The notes under the pieces were generated by a model. That model did not search any database. It saw only the letters and a program-made list of their open reading frames with translations, and was not told where the DNA came from. A stretch of 64,000 bases of DNA from Cyanidioschyzon merolae. Taxonomy: Eukaryota. Position 1 is the first letter of the stretch, and every line of letters starts with the position of its first letter. The position numbers and the translations under genes were made by a program. The DNA is taken from the NCBI GenBank assembly GCA_000091205.1, contig AP006484.2; one strand, 5' to 3'. Below, in pieces: positions 1-57,585 of this stretch.

Positions 1-1235
1 ATAGAGCCTGAAGCACTAGCCTGGCGGACTCGTTCGGCTCGCGGGACCTCTCGCCAGGAAGGTAAACTTTCGAAGATACGGAAACCTTTTCCCGTTTTTA
101 AGGTTTACCATAAAGAAAGAAAAAAATTGTTATCTCGTTGCTGGTTATTGATTAGTCTCTGCACTTTGCTCTATGTAGCGTGGTCGATACGCGCACCTCC
201 ATATCTGGCAGGCATGAGAAACAACGCGCTTTTCGCCTTTGATTGTGCATACGATCCTGACAGTTCGCCGGCTTGGTGACCTGACGGGCAAGTTGTATTT
301 GCGTTGAAATAGTAGCAAATCATGTGTTTCATATTAATTGTTTTTCAACACTCAAGTGAGTGTATTCCAGTGATATTTCGCACGTCATAGAAGACGCGTT
401 CAACGGGCGTTCTTTTTCAAGCAAAAAGGAAAATTATGGACATGGAATTCGGGCATCCGGGGGAGCGGGGGGCGGTGTCGCCTGCTGCGGAAAATACATA
501 TGGAAAACAGTGCCGAGCAGTGCGGAACAGGAAAAGGCAGAGAAGCAGAAGAAGGGGGCCAGACGCCAAAGGCTGCAAGAAAGACGACGGAGCGACGAGA
601 TAGTAGTGAAGGCCTCTCTTCATAGACATATCAAGGATCTGCTCAAGAAAAAAATGCAAGAGACCATCAGGAACCGCATCGAATCTTAATCCGTGAGTAT
701 TATTAAGACTTTTTAAGGACTGATGCATTTGGTGAAGGAGGTGTATCGCGACGTGACGAACAGCACAACAGCCGAGGTTCCCGAAGAATTTTCGAACAAG
801 ACCATCATCTGCCACCTGTTGCTTGGCGCCGGGGAAAAGTCGAGGAGAAGCGAGCGATTACATGCCCTCCACGACAAATACACCAAGTACCGCTCCAGCG
901 GTAATCTATACAGGGGAGACTTGCGTATTTATGAATACGGAGCGATGAAGTACCTCACGAATCTGAAGCACCATATGATCGTGAACCTCGAATGTTTCAT
1001 GACAAGCGACGTGTTTGCACAATGCCCGGGCCTCTCTCCTGAGGAAAGAGATGGGCCATCATCGACAGCATCACAAACGATTGTCGCGATGAACAGGAGA
1101 TTGAATTTGTCGACGGGCAGACATCACGCAGGAGAAAGAATGAAGCTTCTGTAATGCATTCGGTTGTACAAGAGAACCGTGCGGTTCTGGGGCTGGCGAA
1201 TCCAGCGGAAAATGTATTAGATGTAAAAAAGATAA

Positions 1236-2640
1236 AAATAGATTTTATCCCCTCATCTTGCGCTATTTCGCGTTTTTGGACCTAGAACCCGAACACAAAG
1301 CGGAGATGGAGCTGGTGGTGAGAAAAAATGAAGAGTCGCAGAAACGGAGGGCTTTCCTACTGAAGAAGCGCTTCGATGTTGTTGCGATATTCAAGATCAA
1401 GTGGCTCTTTGTGACAATCGACTCCAGCATCCTTCATGCCGTCATGAAGGAGACCAGTCGAGAGTTCGACGTGAGCAAATAGGAAATCACGGGTGAAAAC
1501 CGGGAGACTCATTGGAAGAAATTTTTCGATTTCAAACGTCTCAACAGGAGCAAGAAAAAGGTACTCTCGGGGATGATCGAAAGCGATGGGGTATCGATAT
1601 CTGTACACTATAGGCGCTTGAGGGCGGATCGTCCTGTTCCATCTTTGTTGTCGTCCTCGGCGAAGCATGAATATAAGAAGGATATAGATCCTGCGACGCA
1701 CGAGGTGCATGAGAACGACTGTGTCGTCGGAATCGACTGAGGGAACACGAATATTATCACCATCGCTGCATCTAGTTGTGGGGAAAATGATATCAACGAC
1801 AACTTACGGCGGAAAGGCGTGCAACTTTTAAATTACTAGAGAGCGAGATACTACCGGGAATCTGGGATAATCAATGCGAGGAAAAAAGTGAGACATGGAA
1901 TGCATGAGTGAAAGAGCACCTAGAAGCGATCAGCAAGGTGACGAGCAGCGGAGCGGACTCGCAAGCTTTTTGGGGATTCGTGAAAGTTCGCGCTGCTCAT
2001 TGGGAGGTGCTATGGAAAGAATATACAAAGCCCCGGTTGGCTTATCCACAGATGAAGCTGCACTGTGGGAAGCAGCGTGCATTCGACAACTTCTTCGATG
2101 AATTGAGCGCCCTCAAAGAGGAAAAGAGTCAGAGGTTCATAGTAGCTTATCGAGCAGGACGCTGGGTATTCGGAAAAGGGTTTTCACCCGCTCCACCCGC
2201 ATGAATGTACAAGGAGTGCGCATACCGTATTGCCACGACACCAATGGAAGAATTCCGAACGTCATACACACACCACGAGTCGGGGTGTGCATTCCAGCGG
2301 GTCGAGATGGAAAAGTGTCAGAGGAGCCCTGCATCCATAGAAAAGTACGGAGCGCTGACGGAAGAGCAAATGGAATAGAGGGCACGATTTAGAGGACTTG
2401 ATGCTTGCGTGAGTACAACCAACGAAAAGAATCAAATGGAGTTTGTGAACCAAGACTTTAATGCCGCTATCAATATAAGGAGATGCGCAGTGCCGGAGAA
2501 CAGACCTGCAGAGCTGATGAGAGAAAATCTTTGTGGGGTAGCCTCTGGGGGTAGAGTTGCACAAGGAGAAGTTGAAACCAGTAGTAGGGGGCTGTCAAAA
2601 AAAGACCGGTAGGCGTCTGCACATCAGTCGGTAGAAATAT
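1236..2640 (+). pseudogene. TnpB/Fanzor-like nuclease element, copy A (subfamily 1), degenerate
   Basis: Conceptual translation across frames gives ...GMIESDGVSISV...VVGID*GNTNIITIA (RuvC-I, TGA where Pro is expected)...RARYYRESGI...KQRAFDNFFDELSALKE..IVAYRAGRW (RuvC-II region)...HHESGC..VEMEKCQRSP...LTEEQME...VNQDFNAAINIRRCAV (RuvC-III). At least two in-frame stops (TGA, TAG) and at least two frameshifts. Confidence 0.6.
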
Positions 2641-3556
2641 ATAGTCTATGGCAGTCCGTATGCCACTCGCCACCACATTGCACCGGTTATGCAGCGTATG
2701 CCAATTGAAAGCCATTCGCTTCATATATGTATGCATCGGCACGTATGTATCAAATTGCTATTATTACGTGAAACTTCTGTTGAAGCTGATACGGATTTGC
2801 CAGCGACGAGTGCGCACTGTACGCAGTCTTCATGGGAACTCTGCGTCAATGCTTTGAGCTTCAGAGACATGCAATGCGCTAAGCGTCAGGGGTCTCGCAA
2901 GTACACGATCGAGGAGGTATCCGAGTGTCCACGCTGCATCGCAAGAACGCGATGCGCGACAATGCGGTTCATCTTGCGCTGAAGCACACATAAAAAATGT
3001 TTTCGGAACCAGAACGCGCAAAAGCGCGATCGGTGACCGACCGAAGGTCGTTTCTTACGCATCGAGTAGAGACCAAGACGCTGGATCATAAATTGGACCG
3101 TGGAGGAAAACGCCTCAGTCGAAGATTGACCTACTTCGAATGTCGCACCCGAAATCTGTTCTCCGAGCAGGGGAGCGATGCCTACTCAAAGAGTCTATGG
3201 CGCAGAGCAACGCTGTTTCAACCGAAACAGCGCTGCAGGCAGCGTTGTTGAAAACTGAGGCCGGCAAGGGCGAAGCATTCGAAGAGACACGCATCGCTGT
3301 GCAGCTCAGTGAATCTTTACAGTGACGGGAATCGGAAACTCAGGTTTGCCTGCACGTGCCTCGTTCGGCGACTTGCACTTTGTTCACCGGGAAATGCCCA
3401 TCCAGGCGTGCGCGTCGACCACAGAAAAAGGCGCTTTCCAGACGGCTGCAAAGTCCATGCAGACTCTGTGGGCTTGAACTGCGCGCAACTTCGGGGCTGT
3501 GTAATCTCGGGAGAGTCGGCGATGAAGCGCTCATCAATCGCGCGGTCCAATCGCCG

Positions 3557-6730: not shown

Positions 6731-7664
6731 TCGATGCAGGCGCTCACGACATCATGAACATTCTAGAACGTAATTGTACAGAGCAAACATATGCCCGCAG
6801 CGGGACGCGTTCCATCATTCCTGTCCGATATCGCCGATACCGTGCGCGAACACGCCCGGATACCAGCGCACCGACGTGTGCTCCACCGCAGATGCGCTCA
6901 CGCTGTACCGACTCCAGAACGGTTTTTCTTTAAACAACGACAGCTTCGTGGAGCCAGCGACCTGCCGAGTGCCGGACGTTCACCGAACGACACCTCGATT
7001 GCGAACAGGAGGTAGCGCGTACCCCAATAGCCGGTATCCATAGCACGTCACAGCTACCTGTAGGGCGTCGAAGGCGCATCCCTTGGGGGCATACGCACAA
7101 CTGGCAGTACGGATGCACGTATGCATACGGCCGTCGATAGAGGCACGTCGATCACGTCCATTGCATCGAAGGATGGGCCGATCCGTGTACGTGCAGGTAA
7201 CGCGCACATTCTGTACCTTGGGCGAGAGCGCCTCAAAGCGACATGCGCTGGGCGACAGCACGGCGTGTTCGCAGTGTCGTGACTACCACGGATGTGCTTG
7301 CAATGACACCGCGCGACGACTAAAGCGCATCCGCCCAGTTCGCAGCGATTATCCGCAAGCAGCCTCTGATGTCGGCGGGCACCCAAATTTTCGCAAAACG
7401 CGCAATACGTCCTCCAAATCACTGTTGCCTGTTGGCGGCGTCTCGATGGCGACAAGGATGGAACTGGTACGCTTCGATCTGACGGGGCGGATGCATCTGC
7501 CCGGAGACGGAATGCAGGACACCACTGCGGGACCCAGGTCCCGGGCACGCTCTATGGACTTTGTCGAAACACGTGAGCGAACGTCCAGAAATGTTTATTA
7601 AAGTCACACGAGGTGCTGCACAGGTACGCAGCTCGAGGTCGATGCCGCCATGCACGTCTCGTCC

Positions 7665-12100: not shown

Positions 12101-13069
12101 CCTGAGAAACAGCACCAGGCTTGTCGGTACGTCCGCCTCCAACAGAAGCTCGACTGGAAAACCTTCCAACAGCTTCAACAGAAGCTGAAGCGATGCCCTA
12201 AATGCCGGTCCGGGGTCCGTGAATTCGCAGCGTAACATATGGAGCGCCACAAGAACGATACGGCTGCCTTCCTGCACAAGACGCTCACCGATCGCATCAG
12301 CAGTCAGCTGAACAGTTGCCGCGCCTGCTGACTGACGTATTCCCGTCTCTTCAGCCACTGCGGATAAGATTTCTTCAATTATCGTAGAGAAAATCTCCAT
12401 AGATTCAGCGCTTTCCAGAGGACTTCCGAGCAAATGATCCAGTACCCGAGAACCATAGCTGCTCTCCCAATACTGCACCACAATTCGAGCGAGAAACTGG
12501 GCGACCTTTCTCCGCTCTCCACAAGAAAATGCTCTCTTTCCAGCTGCTAGTGTGCCATGGCAGTGATTCCATAACTCAACTGCAAAAGCGCAGAGCGTCT
12601 GACACATATCCAGGGTGTCCGTACGCGCGCTTAGAGCCTCAGCCTGCGAACGCTCGATAAGGTCGACCAACAGCTGAAACCCATACTGTACAGCGGCCGT
12701 TTCCACTACTCTAGCAAAGTTCGAGTCTGCATCTGGAACAGCAGATCGTGTCAAACTTTCATAGCATAGATTAGCTGCTATGAGGTCCCGTCCCAGCGCG
12801 AAAATCGTGTCTGCGGAGAAAAACTTTGACACATTACAGAGGAACGTATGGGCTTGTCTGCGGCTCTCTCCGGTGCTTTTTCCCCAGTGCAGCACTGCCA
12901 GAGCTGAAACAACTTCCGCCGTAAGATCAGACGCCATTTCCGTTGCAAATCCAGAAATAGTCCCCTTGGCGCTCAGAAGCCACGCAGCCACCACCGCTGT
13001 TCTAAAGTGGAACGACGTCGCGCGCGTACAGTAGTTGCGAGAAGCCCGCCCTAGACCGGACGTCTCCAA
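9110..13069 (-). CDS. Large (1319 aa) uninterrupted ORF, predicted alpha-helical-repeat protein of unknown function
   Basis: Single 3.96-kb ORF with no internal stops and a leucine-rich helical character (HEAT/ARM-like), non-repetitive. No catalytic motif recognised by eye. Confidence 0.5.
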   Translation of the reverse strand: METSGLGRASRNYCTRATSFHFRTAVVAAWLLSAKGTISGFATEMASDLTAEVVSALAVLHWGKSTGESRRQAHTFLCNVSKFFSADTIFALGRDLIAANLCYESLTRSAVPDADSNFARVVETAAVQYGFQLLVDLIERSQAEALSARTDTLDMCQTLCAFAVELWNHCHGTLAAGKRAFSCGERRKVAQFLARIVVQYWESSYGSRVLDHLLGSPLESAESMEIFSTIIEEILSAVAEETGIRQSAGAATVQLTADAIGERLVQEGSRIVLVALHMLRCEFTDPGPAFRASLQLLLKLLEGFPVELLLEADVPTSLVLFLRRRFEQMFGDRLVACADYDWLAIEALGCWITRAQPMLPKQRDVLGSLLETLISFVICFDEAYTGDVGLLIDAPIRWEERLSLLQAVIELTFLAFESTLTHLQERPAIWSSFILLLGRLVSHPWASIAELALAFCCRDQVLKTVLTAQCVVVLLDAAWMRCCMDTSLPAYLFTGKDIVENSVLDANDPRWRLMSFVLSRNAEQPKLNSSLRSRTRDFLRKICQNWRDACLDWVVTRAVDRMDCHRNRRSTGPVMEQFCFREEPAHLHSFWRGLLSVRNGQYPSDAESALFIEMLLDETREVMFFTMSEVLAPLLPSLGRGSGVSKPPGVSKTSSRGASSEVGGEENARLTQVLQLGERVEFVLSMVDTLDLDQDANKIHMILHVFFGCAPLLARIEGAQIRTIQAALRVLERIQQLPCTEHARWSAMGLHRREKWFDALCRGILALLLRSEGSETVSGAQVLLPSIQQALREAPMPFPARCSLLKCVPVIVCSLDSPEKSIPVLNALLEETLGIWKTMALQHEVLRDPERFLIAFLAPSADADTNRTCLLQLLTLFEQMLSVSMKHSIWKQTVMFGELLPTTLPQMVAALNHLFSLRPDGRGDISVLAPSRIEIAQWYRLVMEWMLRAGLLPEAIADSRQHRKELLKTRRSFIHISARGLLLFQRMLALDPDPDALKFYREICLRGIPQVDIEYLALIVRHVMKTLLQCEAQAHQGSDIWETDVTEIWLPLLRATAERIGQLAYEEVSDEESSTMDEVLHGAPHANEASSANEAFDQAAVALVELAVAMLKLESCSRRVQLFNWARDFLRKCLDWHFESASRKAFAFLRKHLSFWIHPAEGYLAIDTESLLQLENSIARALTDERWYSRPEDVRKVHAAVNDELYRRGFSPACFTTSELPSKHPNASMFPGENGGERMRALGNVAVRRSFNHGASTQLNEAAMAFPSSKMASQKHRPLSVRLLQSWKKRTQLYTMDLEDESINGDDDTALEGVAVLFG

Positions 13070-14150
13070 CTGATGTGCAGACGCCTCCCAGTGCTTTTGA
13101 AGCGGCCACCCACTACTGCTTCCAACTGTTTCTCATATAGTTCAACTTTTAGAGGTTGTCCAACAAAGTTCTCTTGTGTAAGCTCTGGAGGTCTTCTCTC
13201 CAGCACCGCACAATTCCTTATATTGGTTGCGGCGTTAAAATCTCGATCCACGAGCTCCATCCGTTTCTTGCCATCACTCCCTGTACTTACCAATGCAAGT
13301 AGCCCATGAACTTTCGCTCTCCTTTCCATTTGCCCCTCCGTCAGCGGTCCATACTTTTCTACATCCTCAGGGCTCCTCTGGCACTTTTCTATCTCCACCC
13401 TCAGGAGTGTACAGCCCAGCTCGTGGTGTGTGTAGGACGTTCGAAACTCATCTACAGGTATCGCAACAAAACGTCTTGCGCACTCATTGCACGTTCTTGT
13501 TGACGGAACTGATGTACACCCTGTTTGGGTCTTCCATTGCCCTACTCCGTACGCTACTACGAGTCTCTGACTTTCATCCTCCTTAAGGGCACTCAACTGA
13601 TTGAAAAAGTTGGCAAATGCCCGCTGCTTCCCACAGTACAGAATCATACGCAGACGAATCCATCGATTCCTTGTATACTCCTCCCACAGCGCATCACAAT
13701 GCGCAATGTGAACTTCCATAAACTCCCGAAAAAAGCTTTAAAGTCCGCTCCTCGGCTCGTCACCTCGCTCATAGCTTCCAGGTGCTCTTTCACTCCTGCA
13801 TTCCACATCTCAATTTTCTTCCTCGCATTCATGATTTCCGATTCTCGATAGTATCTTGCTCTCGAGAATCTCAACAGGCGCATGTCTTTCTGACGTAAGT
13901 TGCAGTTCGTACCATCTTCCGCGCGCGTGGGTACTGCGATGGTTATGATATATGTGTTCCCGGGCTCTGCACCAACGACAAAGTCGTTATCTGGCACCTC
14001 CTGCGTCGCGGGACCCGCCTCCTTCTCATGTTCATGACTCGCCGCACCAACGACGAAATCGTTCTTCTGCACTTTCTGCGTCGTAGGATCCGCCTCCTTC
14101 TCATCTACACGCTTCGTCGCGGGCGAAGCCGAATGCAGACCAGAAGGCGA
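13051..14150 (-). pseudogene. TnpB/Fanzor-like nuclease element, copy B (subfamily 1). Best-preserved copy: one frameshift, N-terminally truncated
   Basis: Two adjacent minus-strand ORFs (13644..14072 and 13051..13719) join with a single frameshift to give VVGAEPGNTYIITIA (RuvC-I)...RARYYRESEIMNARKKIEMWNAGVKEHLEAMSE...GKQRAFANFFNQLSALKEDESQRLVVAYGVGQW...PSTRTCNECARRF (Zn ribbon)...DEFRTSYTHHELGCTL...LTEGQMERRA...VDRDFNAATNIRNCAV (RuvC-III)...TGRRL. Confidence 0.65.
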
Positions 14151-15100
14151 GCCCTACCGCGCAGGAGGTGCAGAAGAACGATTTCGTCGTTGATGCGAAC
14201 CCCGGGAACACGAATATCATACCCATCGCAGCACCCAAGTATAGGGAAGATGCTAACACCGGCAACTTACGTCAGAAAGACATGCGTTTGGTGAAGCCCT
14301 CAAGGGCTAGATATTACCGAGAATCGGGAATCATGAATGCATGGAAGAAAATTGAGACGTGAAACGCAGGAATGAAAGAGCACCTAGAAGCTATGAGCGA
14401 GAAGACGCGCCGAGGAGCGGACTTTCGGGCTTTTCTGAAATTCATGGAAGTTTGTGTTGCTCATTGGAAGGCGCTGTGGGAAGAATATACAAAGCCCCGG
14501 TGGGCCCGTCTGCGTATGAACTCGTACAGTGGGAAGCAGCATGCATTCGCGAACTTTTTCAATCAGTTTAGCGCTCTCAAGGAGAATGAAAGTCAGAGGC
14601 TCGTAGTAGCATACGAAGCATAGAGCTCGGCGTCGAAAAAAGGGTGTAGGCGATCTCCAACGACAAGAACGTACAAAGAGTGCGCATGCCGTTTCGTCAC
14701 GATACCGATAGATGAGTTCCGAGCGTCGTATACAAACCACAAATTGGGGTGCACGCTTCAGAGGGTCGAGATGGCAAAGTGCCAGCGGAGCCCTGAGGAT
14801 ATGAAAAAGTACAGAGGGCCGACGGAAGAGCAAATGGAAAGGAGGGCGAGACTTCGAGGATGGCTTGCACTAGTGAGTTCAACTACCAATGGCGAGAAAC
14901 GCATGGAGTATGTGAACCGAGATTTTAATGCCGCTATCAATATAAGGAGATGTGCGGTGATAGAAAGAAGACCACCAGAGTTGGCACGAGAGAATTTCGT
15001 GGGGCAACCTTTCAAAGTGGGACTATATGAGAAACAGTTTGAACCAGTTGTGAGTGAGCGGTACAAAAAGACTGGGAGGCGTCTGCTCATCAATTAGATA
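14150..15100 (+). pseudogene. TnpB/Fanzor-like nuclease element, copy C (subfamily 1), inverted head-to-head partner of copy B
   Basis: MQKNDFVVDANPGNTNIIPIA...RARYYRESGIMNAWKKIET* (TGA where copy B has TGG/Trp)...MKEHLEAMSE...GKQHAFANFFNQFSALKENESQRLVVAYEA*...HKLGCTLQRVEMAKCQRSPED...VNRDFNAAINIRRCAVIERRPPEL...TGRRLLIN*. Multiple stops and frameshifts. Confidence 0.65.
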
Positions 15101-15144
15101 TAGCTTGTTCCGGTCGGGTTTCCCGCCGCTACTGTGTACTGCCG

Positions 15145-18100
15145 GTGACGTTCGACTTTCGAACAGCGTTCGTTGTCGTGGGTGGTTTTCGTGAGTGCAA
15201 AATGGCTTTTTGCGATTTGAGTGTCTTCACGACGGAACTGTCGTGCGCTACAGGTAATGCACGTCTTCGCAGTCGCCAGGCAACCCTGTTCACCTTGAAG
15301 GGTCGCGTTCACAGGACTGCGTCGGATCTTCGCAGGACTCACAAAATCAGTCGTTTGGTGAGCATGAACGTTAGCGAAACACTCACAAGCACCAAAGCTG
15401 TTCAAAATTTGGAGCCATTAGGCACCAAAGAGAGCGTCCTGGATGCTGCAGTCTCGGCGAAAAAAGTCCAAGCTCCGGGCACCGCAGCACTTTACTTTGC
15501 TTACGGCAGCAATATGTGCCCCCGAGTACTGGGACCCGACACTGATCTTCTCTATTTGTTGCGACGAATATCGTCGTCGTCCTGGGAAACCGGAGAGCCG
15601 GCCGTACTGGAAGGGTTCAGCCTTGAGTTCAGCTGCCCTGGCGTGGAAGCCCTCGGAGAACCAGCATTCGCCAACATTGTGCCTGCCGTCGAGGCCAATT
15701 CTGGTGCACCCCGTGAGCAGTATGATACAGAGGTTCACGGTGTTTTGTTTCGATTGACACAAGCAGAATTAGACCGCATCCTATTATCGGAAGGGGTCGG
15801 GTTAGGGCGCCAGCGCGTCGTCAACGTCACAGTACGCACCTACCGCAACGTACTCTATGAAAATGTCAAGACAGTCGCGTATGTATCATGGGAGATACGG
15901 AATCCACAAAAGCCCTCGTCACGTTACCTCGAGCTCATCCTGGAAGGCGCTAATTACTTTCACTTGGATATTCGGTATGTTCGAACGCTTCTGCGCAAGG
16001 CCTCCGGTGAGTACACCTCTGCCGCGCTCCCAGCCACGAATAATATTCAGAGCGACATGGTGAAAATGCTTCAGGACATACAGGTTCCCCAACAGATTGT
16101 GGCGTTTTATCAAGAAATGCACCACCTCAAGGGAACGGTTCGATTCATCATGCCTCCGATGCTTGACGAGAGCTCACGGGCGACTAGGCCGCTGTTGCTG
16201 TTCTTCCCCGGCCTAGATGGCACTGGCATCAGTATTGCTACACAGCTTAGAATGTTTCAGTCAAAATATGATGTTCGCATTTTGGTGATTCCTCGGGACA
16301 ACCGAATGCCGCTGGATGAATTAGGGAACACAATTCTGGATTGTTTGGAGTGCCTCTGGAAACAAAAGACAGAGGTACTGATGTCGAAAGAGGTATCGCA
16401 CGAGCCTCAGGTTGCACCGGATGTTCTCGCTGAGAGCATGGGCTGCTTATTGTGGTTTGAGTGTGTAAGAGCTTTTCGCAGACGAGCGAATCTCAAATGC
16501 GGCGCTGTTGACCCCTGCGAAAGCCCTACTCGCGCTCTGGCAAGGCACGTCATGCTGGTGAACCCAGCAACTAGTTTCAGCAAATCAGCTCTCGCTCCAG
16601 TTTGGGAAAATATCTCTGCATTACCCGACCCCGTTTACCACGTTGCTCCGTACATATTTAGCCCTATTCTGATCGATCTGCTCCAGCTTTTGGCAGAGCC
16701 CAGTATGGCGTTTCAGTCACTCCAGCGAATGGGTGTCCTCCGCGAAATCTTGCCCAAGGAGACGCTCCGTCATCGGGTGCGACTCATTCGCGACTTTCGC
16801 TATGCAGCCGATGACTTTGCGGCTGCAGCAGAGTACGGTGCTGAGCAATACACAATCGCAGTTGCAGCGAATGATGCTCTGCTGCCCTCTCTAGCAGAAT
16901 CAGAGAGTCTCCTTGGAAAGCTTACGCTGCCTTTTCTCGAAATTCAAAAAACGGGGGTCCGGAGGATGAGTAGCCTTCCTGCTACTGTTGTTCGGTACGT
17001 TGCAACTCAAGGTGGGCACGCGCTGCTCCAGTCGGGGAGCTTCGATGCTTACCAGCAGCTCATGGTTAAGGCTGAACGCGCACATGATCGCATTCGAAGA
17101 GGTCTTTTGGAACGAATACCCAAAGCTGCGAAAGATTCACATACCCGTTCGTCTCCGAGCCAGCATACAACGGACGTCACCGACAAAACAATGGGCTCAG
17201 GTTTCGTAACTGAAACCCTCGACAACGACCAAACACTTGTTGCCAGGTCGCCAACAAATGGACAGCTGGATCGATATGCGATACGGCAGAGGACTGGCTC
17301 GTCCGTGCGGGATTCAACCACGGGCTCACGGTTTTTCCCGAGGAACAAGTTCGCGCTCGGCGAGACGCGGTGGCAGCTTCAACGACAGAGGCGTCTGCTT
17401 TCGCCAATTTTTCTGGATTTCGACAAGGTACCCTTATCATCATCAACGCGTCCGGTTCTGTTTGTTGGAAATCATACCCGTTTGGGGCTCATCGATTTAC
17501 CATTTCTGATTGACCAAGTCTGGAAGAGCCGGGGTGTATTCGTGCGGGGTCTGGCACATCCCATTATATTCGCGATGCAGCAGCGGGGTCAGTCTCAATG
17601 GGAAAGTGCGGGAGATCGGCAGCGCACGCGAGCCCGCGACTTTGCGACGAATCTCGCTGCACTAGGCGCTGTATCTGTATCACCGCGAACGGTTTACAGT
17701 CTCCTTCGGAACGGCGACTCTTTATTGCTTTTCCCAGGCGGCGCCCGTGAAGCATATAAGAGACGTGGCGAAAATAATCAAATTTTTTGGCCGAAGGATG
17801 AAGAGTTTGTGAGACTTTGTGCACGCCTCGATGCTGTTATTGTGCCTTTTGCCTCTTTTGGCCCTGATGACAGCTTCGACGTCGTGGCGGACGGAGAAGA
17901 ACTCTTGAACGTACCTTTTCTGGGCGGCTTTATTCGCAATCAGTTTGAAAGAATGGGTGTTCGCGCTGATATTGTGCGTGCTTGGCGCTCGCCGCTTTCC
18001 GAGCAGCCCTCTGATGCGGCGATCGCAGACCTGTTGATCCCGCTGCTGCGACCGCGGCCGCCACTGCGACTCTACTTCCAGTTTTTCGATCCGGTATATC

Positions 18101-18324: not shown

Positions 18325-21300
18325 TGCTTACAAGTTGCTTGAAAGGAACGTCAGCATGTGGCGCTCCCAAGATAGCTTCCTTCTCGGGCATCGGCGGCGA
18401 TGCACCTCATTTTCTCTCCGGAAATCGGATACCCACTGGAAGCGGGCATTGCGGCGCCGTTTCATATGCGCTTGCACAGGTGCAAGCGCGGCGACTTGTG
18501 TGCAGGCACAATATGCTGCCGTGCACGCACGTGCACGCTTGCATCTGTTCTTTCTGAGGCTGAAGGACGTTGACATGAACCAGGGATACTCCATGGTGCG
18601 CTTGATATCGACGTGCTCGCCTCGATGAACAGCCGCACACCGCTCTGATCTGCAGGCGGGCACGTTGCGCATCGAAGCATGCTCATCGCTCAGTAATGTC
18701 GATTGATGGAGCGTGGTTATCGGTTACGAATTTCCACGGAAAACAGTACTCGGTTGGACTGCAAGGCGCTTTAGCGTCACAGGAATGCTGACCGTACTTT
18801 ACATGTACTCTGCACCTGGTGGTGTACATCCATTGCTCTCTCTCCTCGCAGCCGCGTCGTCCAGGTGGAGACCTCAGCGTTTTAGCTCAATGCCGACACT
18901 GTGTAGTAAATGATCATTTTGAAAAGTTGCTCAACACAAAGCCGCCGGGCGCTCCGGAACAACAGCACATTACCGTGTTGATTGAATCGTTTACAGCTCG
19001 ATGGCGAAAATGGTTGCAAGCATCGTTTCAGGGGGAATCACACCATGGCGAGCAGCTCGCAGTCGATATTCTCGCCACACGACAATTGATCAGCTTATCG
19101 TACACCACTTAGAGCAGCCGTATCTGTTAATGACGCATCTGCTCTACCAGTTTTTGCGCACACCGGCGTGCGTAATGCATGTTTATCGTCCTGAACGCAT
19201 CGATGGGAATCGTACAGGATAGATTCTTGCATTCGTTGTACGCTCTCGTCGAGGACCTAGAGCGCAACGCTTACGACCTGCAGTACGTTCAGCGCCATAG
19301 GCTAACACCAAGCGACGCAAGCTATCGGTCATTCCTTTTTCCATATCATTGAACGATCTGGTTGATGCTTGCTACAGTGCAAACGGAACCGTCGGCTACC
19401 AGAGCGCTATCATGTCCACCTGTCAGGGATAATCCGCAGTAGCCACCACAACTCTTGTCTCCTGCTTCCGAATGAATCGTATAAAAGCATGTGACTCTGC
19501 TCGATTCGGCGCTGAGCGTGTCGAACTGAGTTCTAATGTCGTCATGCAGCGTTTCGGGACGCCTCATGACAACCATCATGCCCAGCTCCCTATGAGACCG
19601 TGCCCTGGAAAGTTGAGCCGCTCCATCTTGTTTCCGTTCGGGTTATGGTTTCGTCGTTTTAATTAAGAGTTATAGGGACCGCTCCAATGTCCTGGATCCC
19701 AGGATCTTCGCCCATAAGGAAGTCTTTCTCTTCATTTAAAGTGAGTGGTTGCGAACAAGCATGGTTGCTTGACTCAGGTCTAGGTTCCACGAATGGCTTG
19801 CAGACTGGTTTTACTTCGGTCTCGATGATATCTGTGAGATTCGTTCCATTTCCTCCATGGACACGTGAAATCCTGAAGGAGCTTCGCCAATGCTCTTCGT
19901 GAAGTTGGTCGAACGCCTCGTAGTCGTTCGCTGAGACCAGCTCATCCTTCGACTTCTCCTTTACTTGGCCGAATAGTATGAAAGTAGCCACCATACTCTG
20001 CATCTGTTTTTTCCTAGTGACTCATACGTTCTCGGAGGGAGATGGGGCTGAATCTCATCTTCTCCACGCAAGTATTTCATGTTCATTAAGCATCCTTTCG
20101 AAACCTTCTACGTCGCGAGGGGGCGCACGCACCGGAGCGGGTCTCTCCGCTCCCTGCCGCGCACGAGCAGAGAAGAAACAAAGCAGTTTAGGGTTGGTGA
20201 AAGTAGTAGAGTTCAAGTCGTCAAAGAATGATTTGCGGAAGAACGTTGGAATGGTTGCGAACTATTCTTTTATGGGCCCGTGAGCTTAGAGATAGCTTTC
20301 GACATCAACGCAGACACTCTCGACAGTAATTGGGAGAACGTACTTGCACAAAGAGCAGGTCGACGCCACTAGCAGCTGCGTTCTGCTTGACCGCTTATGA
20401 ACAGTAGAAGTTGTCGCTGTCAAAGGTTATGATAGAGGAGCATGGGATGAGGAAGCCATGAAGAGCTTCACAGAAGGATGAAGCATCTAGTGATGTCGAT
20501 TGTTTCACGATCTGGAGGCCACATCACGATTAAATTGCCGCTGGTGCTGATATTGTCGGTATTGCGAGCTTATTGCTCATTTTTGAATACTGGTTTGGCC
20601 CATTTTCAGTACTCATGTACAGGTCTACCATTCTTGCCGCCAAAAGTCTCATCGGGTGAGAGGAGCACCATTCCATCTCGCATGAGGCGTTCGCATTTCA
20701 GAAGGATATGCTTCGTGTGTTGCTCAACACGACGCAGTCTCCAAGACAAACATGTTTTTCATCTTTGCATCTCCGCGGCTCACCAGCACAGTTCTAAATA
20801 AAGGCACGGAAACTTGGTATCCTGTGGCAACTTTGGCAAAGTATCCTTCAGAGGAAATGGAGTGGAAGGGAATGGTGAGGATACTGTCTTACAGGTAGAG
20901 TTTGATAGGTTCTGTTTGCGGTGCACGATGTCCATGATAAGGACTGCGAGAAAGAGCAAGAAAACTCACCTGGCAGGCAAACTTGACTGAATTGCACAAG
21001 TAATGCTGCTCTGTTGCGAGCCAGCAGTAACATCCCAAAGTCGTTCCAAACCGTCCAGCAATCCGTAGGACACATACGTGCCGTCAAATACCTGCGATGA
21101 AGACAACCAAATATGTTCGTACTGGCGCAGGCGTTCCGGAATGCACTGCCATGACTGTAAGGCACGTGCACAGCATCCTGCACAAACAACATGGTAAGCA
21201 TAAAATGGAACCGTTTCACTAACTGAAGTGAACACTGCAAAGTTTGTTCCTCGTCCAGCTGCCGGCAACATCAGCCTTTGCTGACCTTTTCCATAATTGT

Positions 21301-26654: not shown

Positions 26655-28900
26655 CATTCAACTCAATTCTGTTTCACACTGCTGTGTGGATTCGTATGCG
26701 TTTTCGGAATTTGTAACAGGCGATCGACATCACGATGCAATGTACCCTATGGATTGTAGACGAATTGCCAGTCGGATGTATTTATCACTGAACAGCGCAT
26801 GGAGGACTGCATTCCTCGTGCAGCTCAGCTGTACCGCGATACTTAGATGGTCGAGGAACTCTTACAGAACCAAGAACCTGCGCCCCATTGTAAAAAACTG
26901 ATATTCTCGAAGACTAATTTCGGTCGATGGCGGAGAACGACGTGTCGTTGAGTTCAATGAAAAGCAAGAATGGACGATAGTAGCCATCATTGTCGTCTCT
27001 GTAGTCCAGCAGCTTGTTCGTGTAGATCTGAAAACACTGGGATACAAGCGCCAACAAGAGTCCTGGTCCACGCACGGCTATCTTCCACCGAAATCGAAAA
27101 GACAGTGTTCCTGGAACGTTCTGGTCGGCACGATACGGGGATTCGTCAGTTCGTTTTCCCGGTCGATGATACTTCCCACGGACGAGACGGTGAGCGCGTT
27201 AAAGGGTATTCGAGGAGATGGAGTCCGTTCACTGTACGATCGAACTCGTGGATAGCGACCACGTCCTGTGTTCTGGCTGCAGTAGACTCAAGTTGCGGCC
27301 TCAGTTTCGCTTGTACAGAAGGTTCATCCAACCGCATCCACTTTGCCGAATCATTGAAGACTTTCCCTGATGTCTGGCGAAGTTCTTCTACTACACAACG
27401 TTGTATTTCTCAATTCCCCATGCGTTTGAGCTTTTACCGATTCTTTTGGAAAACAGCAGCTTTTTATTCCTCCGTACACTCCGTGGTGGGGGTCCACGGA
27501 AGGGCATTTTTTGTGCAAAGTAATATTCGCTGCACTGGGAAAGTCGCTAAAGCGTTCAGCGCAAGGTGACGCCAAGGTACATTCCGTCTTTCTTCCGCAA
27601 GTCCTTCTCCCCCGGGAAGGTCCTCACGTAAGAGTAGAAAGAAGTGCGTTCATTGTAAAGAAACAAAAACCCGAGGAAAAGTATTGAGAAGCAAGTCGGG
27701 GATCCCGGAGGCTTGGTGTCGCCGGATTTCCACAAAAAAAAATGTGAAAATCCTCTCCTCGCCGACCATCGAGCGAAGAAGAGCGAGTGACGAAGAGGAA
27801 GAAGAAATGTATTGGGGGATATGCAAGAAAAGATGTTTGTCCAACGGTACGATGACGAGACTGTAATGGCACAGAGGGCACGAGTTCTATGAATCCTTGC
27901 ATCGATGAGTTCCACCGGAGGCAATAAATACATAGAGCTCTTGAATCGGAACTTCAGTGCTGCCATCAACATTAGGAGATGTGCGATCCTGAAGACGAGG
28001 CTCAAAGAGCTGATGCGATCCAACACCATGGGATAGCCTCTCAGGTTCGAATTGTGCCAGGATAAACTAAAAGCAATAGCGGGCGGCCGGTCGAGAAAGG
28101 CTGGCAGGTGTCTGTGAATGGACACGTATTTACCATCCACGTTCGTGAGACATTTTTGTTTCACTGAAATTCATGTTTTTTGCACACACAAGCACACGCT
28201 GCGTCATTCGATAGAAAATTATCGGAAAGCGATGTTGTCCAAAACGGAATAAATGACGGGAGCAAAAACCAGACCCGAGAACGAGTCGAGAAACTGCGAT
28301 TCGTTAATGCTCCCCTCGTGTTAAGCGCTGATGCACCCTTCACCGTTAGCGATCACCTCGACGCCGCAATTCCCAACTCAAGACCAATCTCGATGCAAAC
28401 AGAACAGGAGGGAGCCTCTGCAAGCATATCCCTTTAGAGTTATTATGCAGCTTTTGAGTGCCGTTTGGTGCATAGCCATGAATGGACGCGTATTTTTCTG
28501 ACGAATTGAATCAATCATTTAACGTGACAAGTTTCGAGAACCTCCGGCTTGAGCTCGTAAACAAGCCGCCAATAAACTTAGTCGAGTATGCATTCTCGCC
28601 AATCCAGCGGCGCGAAATGCTGCCCCCACATATTGTCTTGAAGCACCAAGATCGAAAACTTGAAGCATGGGTGATTTGAATAGGCGACACGTAAGGAGTG
28701 GAGAGGACCATATACTAATACACTAGAATCGGGTACTTATTCCCATTATTTTACGAAATCTTGTCCGATTGCGTCGAAATCCACCTTGACTCCGGTGCAG
28801 TAACAAATTCCAGCAGCAAAGCATCAAACGAGCCACCGCGAAAAGACGTCTGAGAATGCTCGAATTCCTTTGATTTCGTAAGGCGTAATTGCTGCACCTC
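26655..28900 (+). mobile_element. TnpB/Fanzor-like element copy D (subfamily 2), degenerate ORF plus about 0.8-kb 3-prime non-coding region, inserted between the divergent HERC and ATAD2 genes
   Basis: Left end TTCAACTCAATTCTGTTTCACAC is homologous to the Rep2 left end TTCATCTCAATTTTGTCGCACCC. Internal ...KGIRGDGVRSL... and C-terminal LNRNFSAAINIRRCAILKTRLKEL (RuvC-III)...AGRCL*. The downstream region 28478-28900 carries the conserved 3-prime module. An internal 16-bp direct repeat GAATGGACRCGTATTT at 28117 and 28478 flanks a 345-bp segment. Confidence 0.55.
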
Positions 28901-36689: not shown

Positions 36690-37600
36690 GCAAATAATCA
36701 AATGCTTTTGTCGCGGTTTAAGGCAGATGCATTCGATGGGCATTCATTTTCAAAAATTAACAATCCAAGGGAAAGGTATTGGCATGGAAGTCGAGGTTCC
36801 TGAAAGCTTGGTGTTGCCAGATCGGTGAAAAATCGGAAAAAACTTTTCTCCCAACAATCGAGCAAAGAAGAGCCAGTGCTTGAAAAGAAGTTGAAAGGGA
36901 GGCGGTCGAGAAAAAAAGTTTTGCCCAAAGGGACGATGACGAGACTGTAGTGGCACAGAGGGCATGAGTTCTAGGAATCCCTCCACTGGTGCGTACAAGC
37001 AGTAGCTAGAAACGCGTGTAATTCGTGAGCTGCGACTTAACCGCCGCCGTTAACACCAGGAGATGTGCGATGCTGAAGACGAGACCCTCAGAGCTGACGC
37101 GGACGAACTTTGTGGAGCAGCCCTTCTTGGATCGAATTGTACAAGGAGTTGAGGCGGAGAGCATGCTGCCGGTCAAAATGACTGGGAGGAGTCTGCGCGT
37201 GGGTAGATATGTGTGCTCCCAATGTTCCTAGAACGTTTATCGTTATGCTGAAGCGCATGTAAAAAGTAGTGTTGAATTCTTTCTTGTACAATAATGTGGT
37301 GCAATTTGCTGCACCCACGAGTTGAGATGAAAGAGAAAGATCAAAAACATTCAGAAATGCGATGTTTGCGCATACTGCACGTTAGGAAAGAAGAATGCCG
37401 GAGGTTTGTACGATGAATTGGATAATGACAGCAGTCAGTTTACGAACGCTCGGTCGAATGCATTCCAAATCATCTTGATTCTGGTGACGCTGTAAAGTTC
37501 AGCTGCAAAAATCGATGGAGCAACATCGAGAGCGAACAGAGATCCCTCGAAGTACTTATGAATTCCCAAGCCCTAATTGTAGCCCGTTGTATGCCAAGGC
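36690..37600 (+). mobile_element. TnpB/Fanzor-like element copy E (subfamily 2), internally deleted derivative
   Basis: Left-end-like AATGCTTTTGTCGCGG at about 36700 is joined directly to the ORF 3-prime portion (...GTMTRL... DLTAAVNTRRCAMLKTRPSEL = degenerate RuvC-III, ending ...GRSLRVGRY). It is followed by the conserved 3-prime module at 37430-37570. Confidence 0.5.
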
Positions 37601-41931: not shown

Positions 41932-43290
41932 AGTTTTCATCTCAATTTTGTCGCACCCGCGCTGCGGTGCGTACAAAGAGTGATCGAAATGACTATGCAA
42001 GATACCATAGATATCGAGGTCGGATTGTCCGTAAGTTACATTCTTTACTAAACCGTGCATGGATCGCTGCATTCCTCCTTCAGGTACGTATACCATAATA
42101 TTCAGATGGTTGAGAAGCACTGAAAGAAAGAAGTATATGCACTCCGCGTCGAAAAGCGATATTTCCAGCGACTACTTGGTGGCGATGCTAGAAAATAACC
42201 CGTGGATCGAGTTAGGGAAAGCAAAACCTGCGATAATGGCTGCCACAGGCGTCCTTCTTTCCCACAAGCTTGTTCGTGTGATCCTAGAACACTGGGATAC
42301 AGTCTCAAAGAACGAGTCCTAGTTCATGCGCGGCCATCATCCACCGAAATCGGAACTATAGTGTTCCTGGCACGACGCGATCCGTAGAAAGCAGAAGATC
42401 GTCGGTTTGTTTTTTCAGTCGATGAGACTTGCTTCGGACGACACGGTCGGAGCGTATATGGGCGTTCGTGGAGCAGGGCACCCATTGTGTGTATCATCTA
42501 ACTCGAAGAGAACGATCACATCATCATCTGTTCTAGATGCAGTGGATTCATTTGGCGGCCTCAGTTTCGCTCGTGGTGGAGGCTCATGCAACAGCACCCT
42601 CTTCTTTGAATCATTGAAGACTTTTCCCTGATGTCAAGCGTAGTCCTGCTATCGGACAGCGTGACATTTTACCATTCCCTTGCGATCGAGCCTCTGCCGA
42701 TTTTATCCGGATAGGTCTGCTTGCCATTCCTCCGTGCTCTCCGTGACTAAACCCCATCGAAGAAGCGCTTTCTATCGTGAAACGTAACCATCGCTCCATT
42801 GGGTGAAGCGCTGAAGCGTTCAGCACACGGTGACACACCAGGGCACATGTCGTCTCGCTTCCGCAAGTCCTTCTTGATCCGTGAAGATCCTCACTTAAGG
42901 GCATGAAGAAGTGTGTTCGTTTTGAAGAAATACAATACCCGAGAGATGAGCTGGGGTGCACACTTCAGAACGTCGAGATGAAGAAAAGCCAGCGGAGCGC
43001 TTCGCTGGTAGAAAAGCACGGAGTGTTGAGAGAGCAGCAAATGGCGCAGACGGCACGTGTTCGAGGAATCCCGCCACAGTTGTGCTCAACGAGAGGCAAA
43101 AAAAACGCATGAAATTCTTGAACCGAGACTTCAATGCCGCTATCAATTTCAGACGGTGTGCGTTGCTGAAGACGGAACCCGAGGAGCTGAGGAGGTATAA
43201 CTTTGTGCGGCAGCCTCTCCCGGCGGAAGTCTATGAGGTGAAGATGAAAACGATAGCAGTGGGCCGGTTGAAAGAGACTGGGAGTTGTCC
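41932..43290 (+). mobile_element. Rep2a: TnpB/Fanzor-like element copy F (subfamily 2), left end plus degenerate ORF. Diverged homology to the 3-prime region continues to about 43800
   Basis: 100% identical at translation level to 55942-57290. Left end TTTTCATCTCAATTTTGTCGCACCC. Frame-consistent homology to copy D (...LVRVILEHWDTVSKNES*...FFQSMRLASDDTV...). C-terminal ...DELGCTLQNVEMKKSQRS...KKRMKFLNRDFNAAINFRRCALLKTEPEEL (RuvC-III)...GRLKET. Several in-frame stops. Confidence 0.65.
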
Positions 43291-44703
43291 GCGAATGGGT
43301 ATTAGTTCACCTTGGAAAGAACTGAAACTATCGCTCCACCGATCGTATGCAGCGGCCGCTTTGTGCGTTCCCTCTTTTCAATATATTGAGGCAAAATAAC
43401 ACTCCGGAGGAGCTTTGATAGTTCGCTTTCGTCTGAAGACTTTCATCAGAGTACAGTGGGCTCACTGTTTGAAGCTCTCGCTGAAGATAGCACTTATCAG
43501 TCATTGATTGCAACCGTTCCCAAGATCGGATATCGACTGTTCGGAGATGATCTTGTTCCCGGTACTATTGGGCATGCTTAAAAATACTTCCGCACACTAG
43601 CGCACTTTACGGAGCAGATTTTCGTCCCGCTGCAGCTGAATCTCTATGGAAGTATCACAATTTTAGAGGAGCCGCAAGAAACCCAGCACCACTCATTACT
43701 ACGAGGGAGCTCTTTCCATTCGAAGCACGCGTTCGACCTGCGTTTGCCTCGCACGCGTAAGCGTGACGGCTGACGCGCTCCTACAGCAGCGACTCTCCAT
43801 ACTCAGGGCTGCTGGGCCTTTGAAGAGCATCAACGGGCGGCCAGAATAGAAGACACATCGCATGTAAGGCGTCCGACATGCGCTGTCCGCATGCTCTATG
43901 TCGTGAAAATACCAATATCGAACCAGGAAACAAGCACTCCGAACATCATGGGCATCGAGCAACGACTACAGCGAAGACCTTTCCACGCATGAGACTAACC
44001 TTTTCAATCCAGCCCGAAAATGGAATTTCATTCAGTAGAAAAACCGTGAAGTACACGCTTGTCTCGGTTATATATGCATGCAAGCATTCATGTGTGCGAG
44101 CACTCGCGCATCTACGAGCAGCCTCTTGGTGATAGAAGCGGCACACCATCCCGCTGTGGCAAGCCGGCAGTTGGATCCACGAGACCTCGAGCTGATGCGC
44201 TTGAAAGCGCACAGTGCAGCCGTTCTACCACCATGAAGCGATCGCGGCTGGAGCGCCGCAAGCATCCACGATGCGCCGGGTACATTCAAGGTAGCTGGAT
44301 CAAGCAAGCGTTTCCCTCAAACGGGAAGGCTAATTCGGTGCTGGTGTATTGTAGGTACTTCTGTGAGGGAGCAGAGGTCTCGTCCCTGGTACTGGCAGGA
44401 TGCGCGTTCATGCGAGAATATGGACACATGTATCCTTGCCACCCTAGTAGACTCGGACGGCCAGAGGCGCGTCGCGCACCGATTCCGGTCTGTGGATCCG
44501 GGAGATGCGCTCGCATGCTGTCGATTGGGTTCTGCAGCCACAGTCGTCCAGAATACGGATCGCTGACTTTTGCGGTGTATCTATTTTTAGGTTCTAAGGA
44601 TTCGGGTGTTTTTTTGCGAGTTGTGGTTCACTTACAGCATAGACACGCCGTAAACGCTTGTCGCGCGCGGCACCTGTCGAACGTCCGAACTTTTTACAAT
44701 CCT

Positions 44704-57290: not shown

Positions 57291-57585
57291 GGAGGCGCCT
57301 CTGACTAAGTGTTATTTTAATCTTCCTGGTGGTGGAATGTTTTTAGTTTTACTGAGCCTATGGTGCAGATTCCACGATGATTTCGGATACGATTTTTCGT
57401 CGTTGCACTTGCGAGGGTGCACCGGTCAGAAGTAGAGCCGCGAACTTTCCGCTGTTTAAGACGCCGAATAAGTTTCCGTGGGTAGAAGGGCATCGTTTGC
57501 TTCTTTGTGTCGACCGGCCAAAAGAGTGGAGCCTGTGAGAGGTACGTCCACCACGACGAGGGATCTGTAGGGCAGAAGCCTGCCA

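Follow-up and report, generated by a model that had tools for sequence, protein, structure and literature searches.

Fanzor1 proteins are eukaryotic, TnpB-like, RNA-guided nucleases, Fanzors having been demonstrated to be RNA-guided nucleases in 2023; TnpB itself is prokaryotic and is associated with TnpA. A transposon of Cyanidioschyzon merolae that encodes a Fanzor1, CMe-1A, was published in 2013 (Bao & Jurka, Mobile DNA 4:12; PMC3627910), and its 734-aa product, CMe-1, is among the founding Fanzor1 proteins (PMC3627910). The element was described without TIRs and without TSDs, and about 150 copies, each about 80% identical to the consensus, were reported in the 16-Mb genome (PMC3627910). 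The stretch of DNA analyzed here, 64 kb in full and referred to as the window, belongs to the 457-kb chromosome of C. merolae 10D. Two host ORFs of the window match the C. merolae 10D proteins BAM78885 and BAM78893 exactly, and the genes flanking the family copies likewise correspond exactly to C. merolae nuclear genes. Nine loci in the window carry pieces of one protein, and they are almost certainly nonfunctional relics of the Fanzor1-carrying CMe-1A. The family is the known CMe-1A/CMe-1 of Bao & Jurka and is not new; as its Fanzor1 has been known since 2013, it serves for calibration rather than discovery.

The intact CMe-1A is about 3.2 kb long, with a 0.9-kb noncoding 5' region, one intronless ORF of 734 aa, and about 60 to 80 nt 3' of the ORF that end in a hairpin. 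The protein begins with a K/R-rich segment resembling a nuclear localization signal and continues with a helical N-terminal half, then a variable 25-26-aa tandem repeat and a split RuvC with Fanzor signatures. In RuvC-I the signature is DPG, and in RuvC-III it is RDFNAAINIRRC; the canonical RuvC-II position is occupied by an inert Gly, with VDEFRTS supplying an alternative Glu.

Copies of CMe-1A in the window

The window was searched by tblastn with the assembled copy B, metagenome homologues, and the published CMe-1 consensus as queries. The loci matched at E-values of 1e-10 to 1e-160, far beyond chance, and profile-HMM searching of the window, translated in six frames, agreed with them. The eight loci that the first-pass annotation had listed are all recognizable as pieces of one protein by tblastn and profile, and a ninth, copy G, is added here. 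The CMe-1 protein and the CMe-1A DNA consensus (3169 bp) were taken from the supplements of PMC3627910. The window copies are about 79 to 87% identical in nucleotide sequence to this consensus (over 1.0 to 2.6 kb, 79.5% for copy A, 86.8% for copy B, and 83.6% for copy C). They are of the same family, with protein motifs identical to the published 734-aa consensus, and their classification does not differ from that of CMe-1A.

The longest CMe-1A copy in the window, copy A (10..2643, plus strand), corresponds to consensus positions 480-3110, its 5' end being cut by the window edge. It had been reported at 1236-2640; the copy is real, and the span is longer. The blastn match at 79.5% identity extends over 2635 bp, tblastn covers aa 21-734 in 5 pieces, and profile positions 3-600 are matched. 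Many frameshifts and stops interrupt the copy; its RuvC-III reads NQDFNAAINIRRC, and its RuvC-I reads GID*G (GID*GNTNIITIA), so that the string VVGIDPGNTNIITIA, first presented as RuvC-I, had been read through a stop codon.

Copies B and C are arranged head-to-head and are both 5'-truncated at consensus ~2106-2120, retaining only aa ~392/405 to 734. Copy B (12992..14132, minus strand) corresponds to consensus ~2106-3169 (aa ~405-734) and contains two units of the internal 75-80-bp repeat as well as the 3' hairpin. Its ORFs lie at 13644-14072 and 13051-13719, and the proposal that a single frameshift separates it from a readable frame was borne out: there is exactly one, near 13720-13731, and 340 codons run without an in-frame stop. 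The catalytic Asp of its RuvC-I is changed (GAEPGNT). Copy C (14111..15169, plus strand; consensus ~2109-3169) has several frameshifts, and its RuvC-I Asp has become Asn (DANPGNT). A recent inverted duplication giving rise to B and C was considered and rejected: despite the same truncation point, the two are only 77% identical and have just 27 derived sites in common, another 103 being unique to B and 140 to C.

Two copies are highly diverged. Copy G (19142..19979, minus strand), was detected by tblastn and profile; its match to the profile spans positions 280-549, with aa identity of about 24%. It has GEDPG at RuvC-I and has lost the alternative Glu (IDAFRT). Copy H (61422..62187, plus strand), found by the same two methods, shows about 30% aa identity over aa ~508-706, with a profile match at 61663-62187 (E=8.6e-21). 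It keeps LVVAYGAG, has lost the alternative Glu (VFAYRT), and contains stops.

The remaining four, all on the plus strand, form an E/D type, a subfamily with internal deletions and a different 5' module of about 1 kb; the 5' ~645 bp of CMe-1A is itself one of several interchangeable upstream modules. Copy E (26722..28114), matched to the consensus by blastn and tblastn, is an internal-deletion derivative in three parts: a 5' module of about 920 bp (26722-27641) that bears no relation to the CMe-1A 5' region, a remnant of the ORF start (27642-27740; consensus 869-962) detected by blastn, and the C-terminal ~87 codons (27857-28114), with NRNFSAAINIRRC at RuvC-III. A metagenome locus (L062) has the copy E 5' module attached to a long CMe-1A ORF. 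Copy F (36740..37207) is an E/D-type fragment holding only the C-terminal ~90 codons, with stops (tblastn, aa 640-724), and is 69.5% identical to 27646-28062 of copy E. Copy D (41934..43310) is an internal-deletion derivative that combines a 5' module of about 1 kb with the C-terminal ~125 codons (aa 608-729) and carries a frameshift; D' (55944..57310) is its near-identical duplicate. Copies E and D are 68.6% identical over 26722-27675 and 41982-42943, and in E, D, and D', neither the protein nor the profile matched the ~950 bp upstream. The earlier description of all loci as colinear pieces thus fails for these four (26655-28120, 36690-37240, 41932-43290, and 55942-57290), which keep only the last ~90 to 125 ORF codons, plus the ORF-start remnant in E.

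All nine copies are disrupted by frameshifts, stops, truncations, or internal deletions; A, B, C, G, E, and H, six distinct copies, also have a lesion at a catalytic motif. The statement of the first-pass annotation that every copy is damaged is borne out by ORF maps and motif states. Every window copy is dead.

Fanzor1 membership of CMe-1

Reading the raw sequence had been enough to recognize a Fanzor from its motifs, and the family escapes Pfam, NCBIfam, and single-sequence PDB searches alike. The Pfam check put forward with that reading gives a false negative. PF07282 (Cas12f1-like TNB/OrfB_Zn_ribbon) gave E=1.2 on copy B, with 9.8 bits against a cutoff of 26.3; the best distant relative, at 18.5 bits, also stayed below 26.3. 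PF01385 (OrfB_IS605) never matched, Pfam found no match on six long, full-length metagenome family members, and NCBIfam returned nothing on copy B. No significant hit came from phmmer of copy B against PDB sequences, nor any from a shallow family profile (22 sequences, 70 to 90% identity) against the PDB. The long metagenome homologues carry only a precomputed "DUF8286 (weak)" tag.

A profile built from the family and 41 distant representatives, searched against PDB chains, found PpFz (9cf0, E=5.2e-20), SpuFz (8gkh, 3.1e-12), and GtFz (9cer, 6.6e-5), with nothing else significant. AF2 modeling from a shallow alignment was unusable (pLDDT 54), and a good model was obtained only after the distant representatives were added (pLDDT 82.7, pTM 0.76). 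The fold comparison with TnpB and Fanzor that had been suggested was informative: the top seven Foldseek matches of this model in the PDB were Fanzor1 entries (E of 4e-12 to 2e-9), the best having a TM of 0.64 (SpuFz) over ~610 columns, with ISDra2 TnpB eighth and Cas12 thereafter. The literature and our own profile and structure tests confirm that the family is Fanzor1, and they agree with the first-pass annotation that a dispersed, degenerate Fanzor-type (TnpB-like RuvC) family resides in a eukaryotic nuclear genome.

The sole Pfam signal on copy B is a subthreshold match of 11 residues, and that signal, with Pfam and NCBIfam otherwise silent, is what could be said for motifs that stem from an unrelated Zn-ribbon protein, from a prokaryotic TnpB acquired by contamination or recent transfer, or from chance. 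Such origins have a negligible probability and are already refuted, as both profile and fold rank eukaryotic Fanzor1 first and TnpB a distant eighth, the flanks are exact C. merolae nuclear genes, and the sequence is that of the published CMe-1. Assignment to prokaryotic TnpB (IS200/IS605, IS607) was rejected on the DPG and alternative Glu, the eukaryotic nuclear context, and the rank of TnpB as only the eighth structural match.

The active-site residues point the same way. TnpB has a D-hydrophobic-G motif and the canonical RuvC-II Glu, and DPG is defined as a Fanzor signature of RuvC-I (PMC10711439); in Fanzors the canonical RuvC-II Glu is replaced and an alternative conserved Glu lies downstream (PMC10530073). 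In CMe-1, D318, E490, and D559 are invariant in 44 sequences that share only 27 to 41% identity with CMe-1 sequences, and they agree with the DPG, alternative-Glu, and RD signatures of Fanzors (PMC10711439 and PMC10530073). The family consensus of RuvC-I is GADPGNTNI, its D and P-G being invariant or nearly so in the 44 diverse sequences, and in the window copies themselves the DPG is mutated. The canonical RuvC-II strand reads VVAYGAG, with the invariant E490 about 35 residues downstream in VDEFRTS; RuvC-III is NRDFNAAINIRRC, in which D559, N561, A563, and N565 are invariant.

The zinc ribbon announced by the first-pass annotation did not survive. Its TSxxCxxC rests on a substitution private to copy B (TRTCNEC, against TRTYKEC in the family), upstream of the zinc-finger position of other Fanzors. 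Between RuvC-II and RuvC-III, no C4 zinc finger (CxxC...CxxC) occurs in CMe-1 or anywhere in its clade; the corresponding positions in CMe-1 read HHEL..GC and LLALVSTT, and the clade consensus keeps only a single WC. Bao & Jurka list the C4 zinc finger as strictly conserved (PMC3627910). According to a later account, "many," not all, Fanzors carry one (PMC10711439), and its absence is therefore a variant feature rather than grounds for exclusion. These lost cysteines, purifying selection in a family of which every sampled copy is broken, and near-intact copies in hot-spring metagenomes are minor points that may be of specialist interest.

Selection, age, and mobility

Noncoding divergence in the family is 19.4%, and coding divergence is 13.5%. 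Across 85 copies, the median dN/dS against the consensus was 0.38 (range, 0.26 to 0.54), values that come from tblastn-selected segments and a majority consensus and may be biased downward. Pairwise dN/dS among copies was ~0.40, even at dS of 0.3 to 0.7, and copy B gave 0.25 to 0.28 against the CMe-1A consensus, an ungapped stretch of 226 codons alone giving 0.25. A neutral simulation using the element's own noncoding substitution spectrum yielded 0.76 +/- 0.11 (minimum, 0.55) and ~12 stops per ORF. From dN/dS of ~0.4, both against the consensus and pairwise, several lineages were long under purifying selection before each copy was inactivated, which means that the ORF was still functional while much of the family divergence accumulated. 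One old burst followed by neutral decay, first proposed from ~13 to 20% divergence from the consensus, was dropped after the dN/dS and simulation results. The great age claimed for the family at the outset is supported and refined by these values.

Purifying selection in all pairwise comparisons is also what would be expected of host paralogues, that is, domesticated nuclease genes rather than transposon cargo. We consider this very improbable, since the copies share noncoding 5' and 3' regions with defined ends, include internal-deletion and 5'-truncated derivatives, are interspersed with unrelated host genes, and are without exception disrupted, and since ~150 of them are reported in a 16-Mb genome (PMC3627910).

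Relics of a transposon also remain the better reading with respect to mobility. Recent activity had been argued from identical duplicates, and copies D and D' are indeed 99.93% identical over 1351 bp (41934-43284 and 55944-57294) with unrelated 5' flanks, as a fresh, trans-mobilized insertion would be. The selection data, with far fewer stops than the ~12 expected, place inactivation late relative to divergence, and a near-intact metagenome copy exists (P0306, locus L083), whose ORF runs uninterrupted for 752 codons, the only damage being an N-terminal frameshift and a single nonsense codon 34 codons short of the natural stop. Present or very recent mobility of the family in C. merolae, with intact copies elsewhere, is nevertheless unlikely. 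The pair is a noncoding deletion derivative, D having no usable ORF, and the identity ends at 57294, within sequence still Fanzor-homologous in both loci, a signature of gene conversion or duplication and not of an element terminus. None of the 80 best metagenome loci had a fully intact ORF, no C. merolae protein in NCBI or UniRef is among the matches to the family, and nine of nine window copies are dead. For the D/D' duplicate, transposition is no better an explanation than gene conversion or local duplication.

Nearly intact family copies occur in hot-spring metagenomes, and metagenomes also hold intact but distant ORFs (P0314 and P0315). Given the near-intact copies, a thermo- and acid-tolerant Fanzor1 is probably reconstructable. 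It is conceivable, if rather doubtful, that the CMe-1 lineage is a zinc-finger-less Fanzor1 clade still functional in wild Cyanidioschyzon of hot acid springs, with the 3' hairpin as the guide-proximal part of its fRNA and with P0306-type copies once repaired, or intact relatives like P0314 and P0315, acting as RNA-guided nucleases adapted to ~40 to 55 C.

Element ends, guide RNA, and comparison with known systems

By homology with the solved and biochemically tested Fanzor1 enzymes, we infer that an intact CMe-1 would cut DNA under RNA guidance. The element's 3' end would give rise to a guide RNA (fRNA/omegaRNA) that reads into the flank; the protein would bind this RNA, and its single RuvC site would cut matching DNA next to a short motif. 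Hairpin-capable sequences lie at consensus ~645-665 and at the 3' end, where most copies have a terminal hairpin (mean folding z-score, -2.15; 16 of 32 copies below -2). On the 32 3' ends, RNAalifold gave 0 pairs and no consensus structure, and covariation counts there were not above controls. The inner 3' hairpin is 72 to 77% paired, with no excess of compensatory changes, Rfam had no match on the 3' end, and in a per-position conservation profile this end showed no more conservation than other parts of the element. In one subfamily, homology between copies extends ~16 to 18 nt beyond the published CMe-1A 3' end. An outer stem beyond that end, convincing by eye and in single-sequence folds, fails the arm-swap test, 5' and 3' arms of the same copy pairing no better than arms of different copies (p=0.15); the claim is limited to the "TTTTTC" subfamily and does not extend to covariation.

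Among chlorophytes, Fanzor1 is known from Chlamydomonas (CRe-1/2/3, carried in Helitron2 elements) and Tetrabaena socialis (TSOC_005131), and the profile search placed T. socialis PNH08370.1 among the closer full-length relatives. Like the CRe elements, CMe-1A lacks classical TIRs and has a 3' hairpin; in contrast to them, no asymmetric terminal inverted repeat was found in it and its 3' end is not CTRR, so that it stays unclassified. No Helitron2-type repeat of this kind, from the 5' end to the 3' subterminal region, rose above shuffled controls, and a nonautonomous Helitron2 element was rejected on that ground. ISDra2 TnpB (8H1J) and the Cas12 effectors have the RuvC core fold in common with CMe-1 and are next best after Fanzor1, with partial matches (TM of ~0.2 to 0.3). 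The solved Fanzor1 proteins, SpuFz1 (8GKH, 9CEU-9CEZ), PpFz1 (9CF0-3), and GtFz1 (9CER-T), resemble CMe-1 in whole-protein fold at only 13 to 15% sequence identity. SpuFz has CxxC...CxxxxC zinc ligands that CMe-1 and its clade lack, with HHEL in CMe-1 in place of CPRC and LLALVSTT in place of GCTNPNC, and CMe-1 also has the variable 25-26-aa tandem repeat, which is disordered, just upstream of RuvC-I. CMe-1 and the solved Fanzor1 proteins align at the ETDG strand, the DPG, the alternative Glu in (V/L)DE(F/Y)xTS, and the RuvC-III NRD.

Copies of a published element and their host setting

The peptides quoted in the first-pass annotation were found on both strands in an ORF map of positions 12500-15600, and two minus-strand ORFs of copy B (13644-14072 and 13051-13719), joined by one frameshift, gave a stop-free protein of 340 amino acids. 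A tblastn search with this joined protein recovered all eight loci reported to carry pieces of one protein. Using longer homologues and the published consensus as queries, tblastn also revealed a very diverged ninth copy (19142-19979, minus strand), which was confirmed when the window was translated in six frames and searched with a profile HMM. The E values of the copies, 1e-10 to 1e-160, exclude chance for these loci and confirm the repeated protein.

In a database search, copy B matched 225 "hypothetical" proteins (65 to 79% identity), all from hot-spring-type metagenomes and tagged solely with a weak precomputed DUF8286. Cyanidioschyzon merolae is reported to hold one Fanzor1 family, CMe-1A, whose copies number about 150 and each show ~80% identity to a 3169-bp consensus coding for a 734-aa protein, CMe-1; the element was described as lacking TIRs, with TSDs undetermined and TE class unknown (Bao & Jurka 2013, PMC3627910). 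The CMe-1 protein in the published supplement has exactly the motifs quoted from the window, and the window repeats are this CMe-1A/CMe-1 family, hence already known. Mapping the CMe-1A consensus to the window placed copy A at 10-2631 on the plus strand (consensus 480-3095, 79.5% identity), copy B at 13026-14132 on the minus strand (2106-3135, 86.8%), and copy C at 14111-15135 on the plus strand (2109-3133, 83.6%). In four plus-strand copies, E (26722-28114), F (36740-37207), D (41934-43310), and D' (55944-57310), similarity was limited to the last ~250 to 350 bp of the consensus, with an additional short ORF-start piece detected by blastn in E, and copies G and H resembled CMe-1 at the protein level only.

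The window has long intron-less ORFs at a GC content of ~51%, and two of its host ORFs are identical to C. merolae 10D proteins encoded on a 457,013-bp record, namely BAM78885 (bromodomain AAA ATPase) and BAM78893 (MYB-related), which identifies the window as nuclear DNA of this thermoacidophilic red alga. GC reaches 62 to 64% at 4001-8000 versus ~50% elsewhere in the window, and a 68-bp tandem repeat (2.1 copies, 84% matches) lies at 63649-63789. As an inverted, head-to-head pair, copies B and C fill the intergenic region between two divergent host ORFs. When called mechanically, these host ORFs, 9110-13069 (minus) and 15145-18324 (plus), overlap the 3' ends of the two copies through TTG or GTG "starts" lying upstream; translation probably begins at ATGs farther downstream.

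Lesions, derivatives, and element architecture

The view that every window copy is damaged held for all nine, which are dead, and catalytic motifs are hit in A, B, C, G, E, and H. Copy A, credited with GIDPG, actually reads GID*G, with a stop codon inside DPG, and has NQD at RuvC-III. DPG has become EPG in B and NPG in C, the alternative Glu is replaced by Ala in G and lost in H, and RD has become RN in E. Copies B and C are truncated at consensus ~2106-2120, inside an internal tandem repeat, and are only 77% identical to each other, with few derived changes in common. The repeat unit, KHEEKKEADPATQEVQDNDFVV (75 to 80 bp, 25 to 26 aa), lies within the Fanzor ORF just upstream of RuvC-I, at 13968-14132 in B, 14123-14200 in C, and 2117-2196 in the consensus. 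It occurs in 1 to 6 copies, is also seen in metagenome loci L010, L015, L034, L044, and L073, and falls in a region predicted to be disordered (pLDDT <50 at model residues 258-304).

The description of the loci as colinear pieces failed for E, D, and D', in which the ~950 bp preceding the C-terminal piece resembles neither the protein nor the profile and is instead another kind of 5' module. Metagenome locus L062 carries this module fused to a long CMe-1A ORF at consensus ~869, by which comparison E, D, and D' are internal-deletion derivatives of a second subfamily. Copy F is a fragment of an E/D-type element. D and D' share 1351 bp at 99.93% identity, and such duplicates had been taken as a sign of recent activity. 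On the 3' side, their identity stops within sequence that is still Fanzor homologous, and diverged, in both loci; gene conversion or duplication fits the pair at least as well as transposition. A second repeat pair of 1403 bp (39894-41296 and 47847-49249, 99.4% identical), with one member 638 bp upstream of copy D, contains no convincing ORF and no CMe-1A similarity. Its offset is 7953 bp versus 14010 bp for D/D', which rules out a single simple tandem duplication as the source of both pairs.

The 5' part of CMe-1A is modular. At least three unrelated upstream modules of ~500 bp, one of them an inverted second CMe-1A/TE-N2 5' end, meet one point of the element, at consensus ~645-665, marked by the palindrome GCGCTCAGTGAGCGC (loci L004, L009, L017, L019, L064, and others). 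TE-N2_CMe, the 635 bp published as the 5' part, is thus one alternative among several. In full-length copies (L024, L029, L036, L051, L056, and others), the published 5' end is consistently preceded by 10 to 12 T-rich nt, often starting TGAT, as in CTGATTTTTT/CGATGAC. Either ~10 nt are missing from the consensus or the element has a target or TAM-like preference.

Selection and possible recent activity of the family

Copies at 80 related metagenome loci were 79 to 90% identical to the consensus, with 1 to 6 units of the internal repeat, and none of these 80 best loci had a fully intact ORF. The dN/dS ratio against the consensus had a median of 0.38 (range, 0.26 to 0.54; 85 copies), with 0.45, 0.28, and 0.38 for A, B, and C, respectively, and pairwise values were about 0.40 in every dS class. 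When neutral evolution to the same divergence was simulated with the non-coding substitution spectrum of the element, dN/dS was 0.76 ± 0.11 (minimum, 0.55), and each ORF acquired about 12 stop codons. The family's divergence is not neutral. Together with the higher divergence of the non-coding part (19.4%) than of the coding part (13.5%), the difference in dN/dS indicates that many CMe-1A lineages were under purifying selection and then inactivated comparatively late.

Matches to the full CMe-1 consensus included no annotated C. merolae protein. The same search returned metagenome protein P0306, an uninterrupted 752-codon ORF at locus L083, where the only lesions are a single frameshift near the N terminus and a nonsense codon that precedes the natural stop by 34 codons. 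Two further matches, P0314 and P0315 (locus L084), are intact, with lengths of 698 and 702 aa and 42 to 43% identity. To judge from these ORFs, recent family activity is plausible in natural populations, a reading confined to those populations.

Fanzor1 assignment, the 3' end, and the zinc site

The Pfam search proposed as a check gave only PF07282 at an E value of 1.2 for copy B and no match for six long family members; NCBIfam, and PDB sequences searched by phmmer or with a shallow family profile, gave nothing. Among 1.84 billion cluster representatives, searched exhaustively by profile, 1449 were relatives, many of 600 to 740 aa; one of the relatives is a protein of the green alga Tetrabaena socialis. 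In an alignment of three family members and 41 relatives (27 to 41% identity to CMe-1 sequences), D318, E490, and D559 (numbering of metagenome protein P0028) are invariant within GxDPG, VDEFRT, and NRDxNAAxNI; the DPG motif and a relocated glutamate are published Fanzor signatures (PMC10711439, PMC10530073). The profile of this alignment matched the solved Fanzor1 proteins PpFz (E = 5.2e-20), SpuFz (3.1e-12), and GtFz (6.6e-5) across the ETDG, DPG, DE(F/Y)xTS, and NRD motifs. AlphaFold2 reached a pLDDT of 54 with the shallow alignment and 82.7 (pTM 0.76) with the diverse one. In the structural comparison that had been suggested, Foldseek placed seven Fanzor1 entries first among PDB structures (SpuFz, TM 0.64, E = 4e-12), ahead of ISDra2 TnpB, with Cas12 proteins next. 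Profile, fold, catalytic motifs, and identity with the published element establish the CMe-1A family as Fanzor1, and the first-pass annotation was correct in this core interpretation.

Most copies end in a 3'-terminal hairpin of two variants, CGTTTTTC-TTTT-GAAAGGCG and CGTTCGA-CTT-TCGAACG, and one subfamily has a longer stem ~16 to 18 nt past the published 3' end. Formal tests found no significant covariation at the 3' end, which is why we treat the fRNA there as hypothetical. Helitron2-type terminal repeats were not found in CMe-1A. From the characterised Fanzor1 enzymes (PMC10530073), we infer an RNA-guided mechanism for a protein with the observed fold, catalytic motifs, and element anatomy: an intact protein would bind RNA transcribed from the element's 3' end, the 3' portion of this RNA would extend into the flank, and that portion would guide RuvC cleavage of matching DNA beside a TAM.

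The claimed zinc ribbon lacks a C4 site. The clade consensus retains a single Cys in the zinc-ligand region, and the "CxxC" seen in copy B, TRTCNEC, results from a Tyr-to-Cys change private to that copy and located upstream of the zinc-finger region. In P0314 (YTHHE) and P0315 (YTHCE), a YTHHE-like motif lies exactly at the first CxxC of other Fanzors, where P0151 (699 aa) has THAE, and this sequence pattern suggests that in these proteins the zinc site was replaced in a conserved way and not lost at random. SpuFz carries CPRC and GCTNPNC, whereas CMe-1 has HHEL..GC and LLALVSTT at the equivalent positions.
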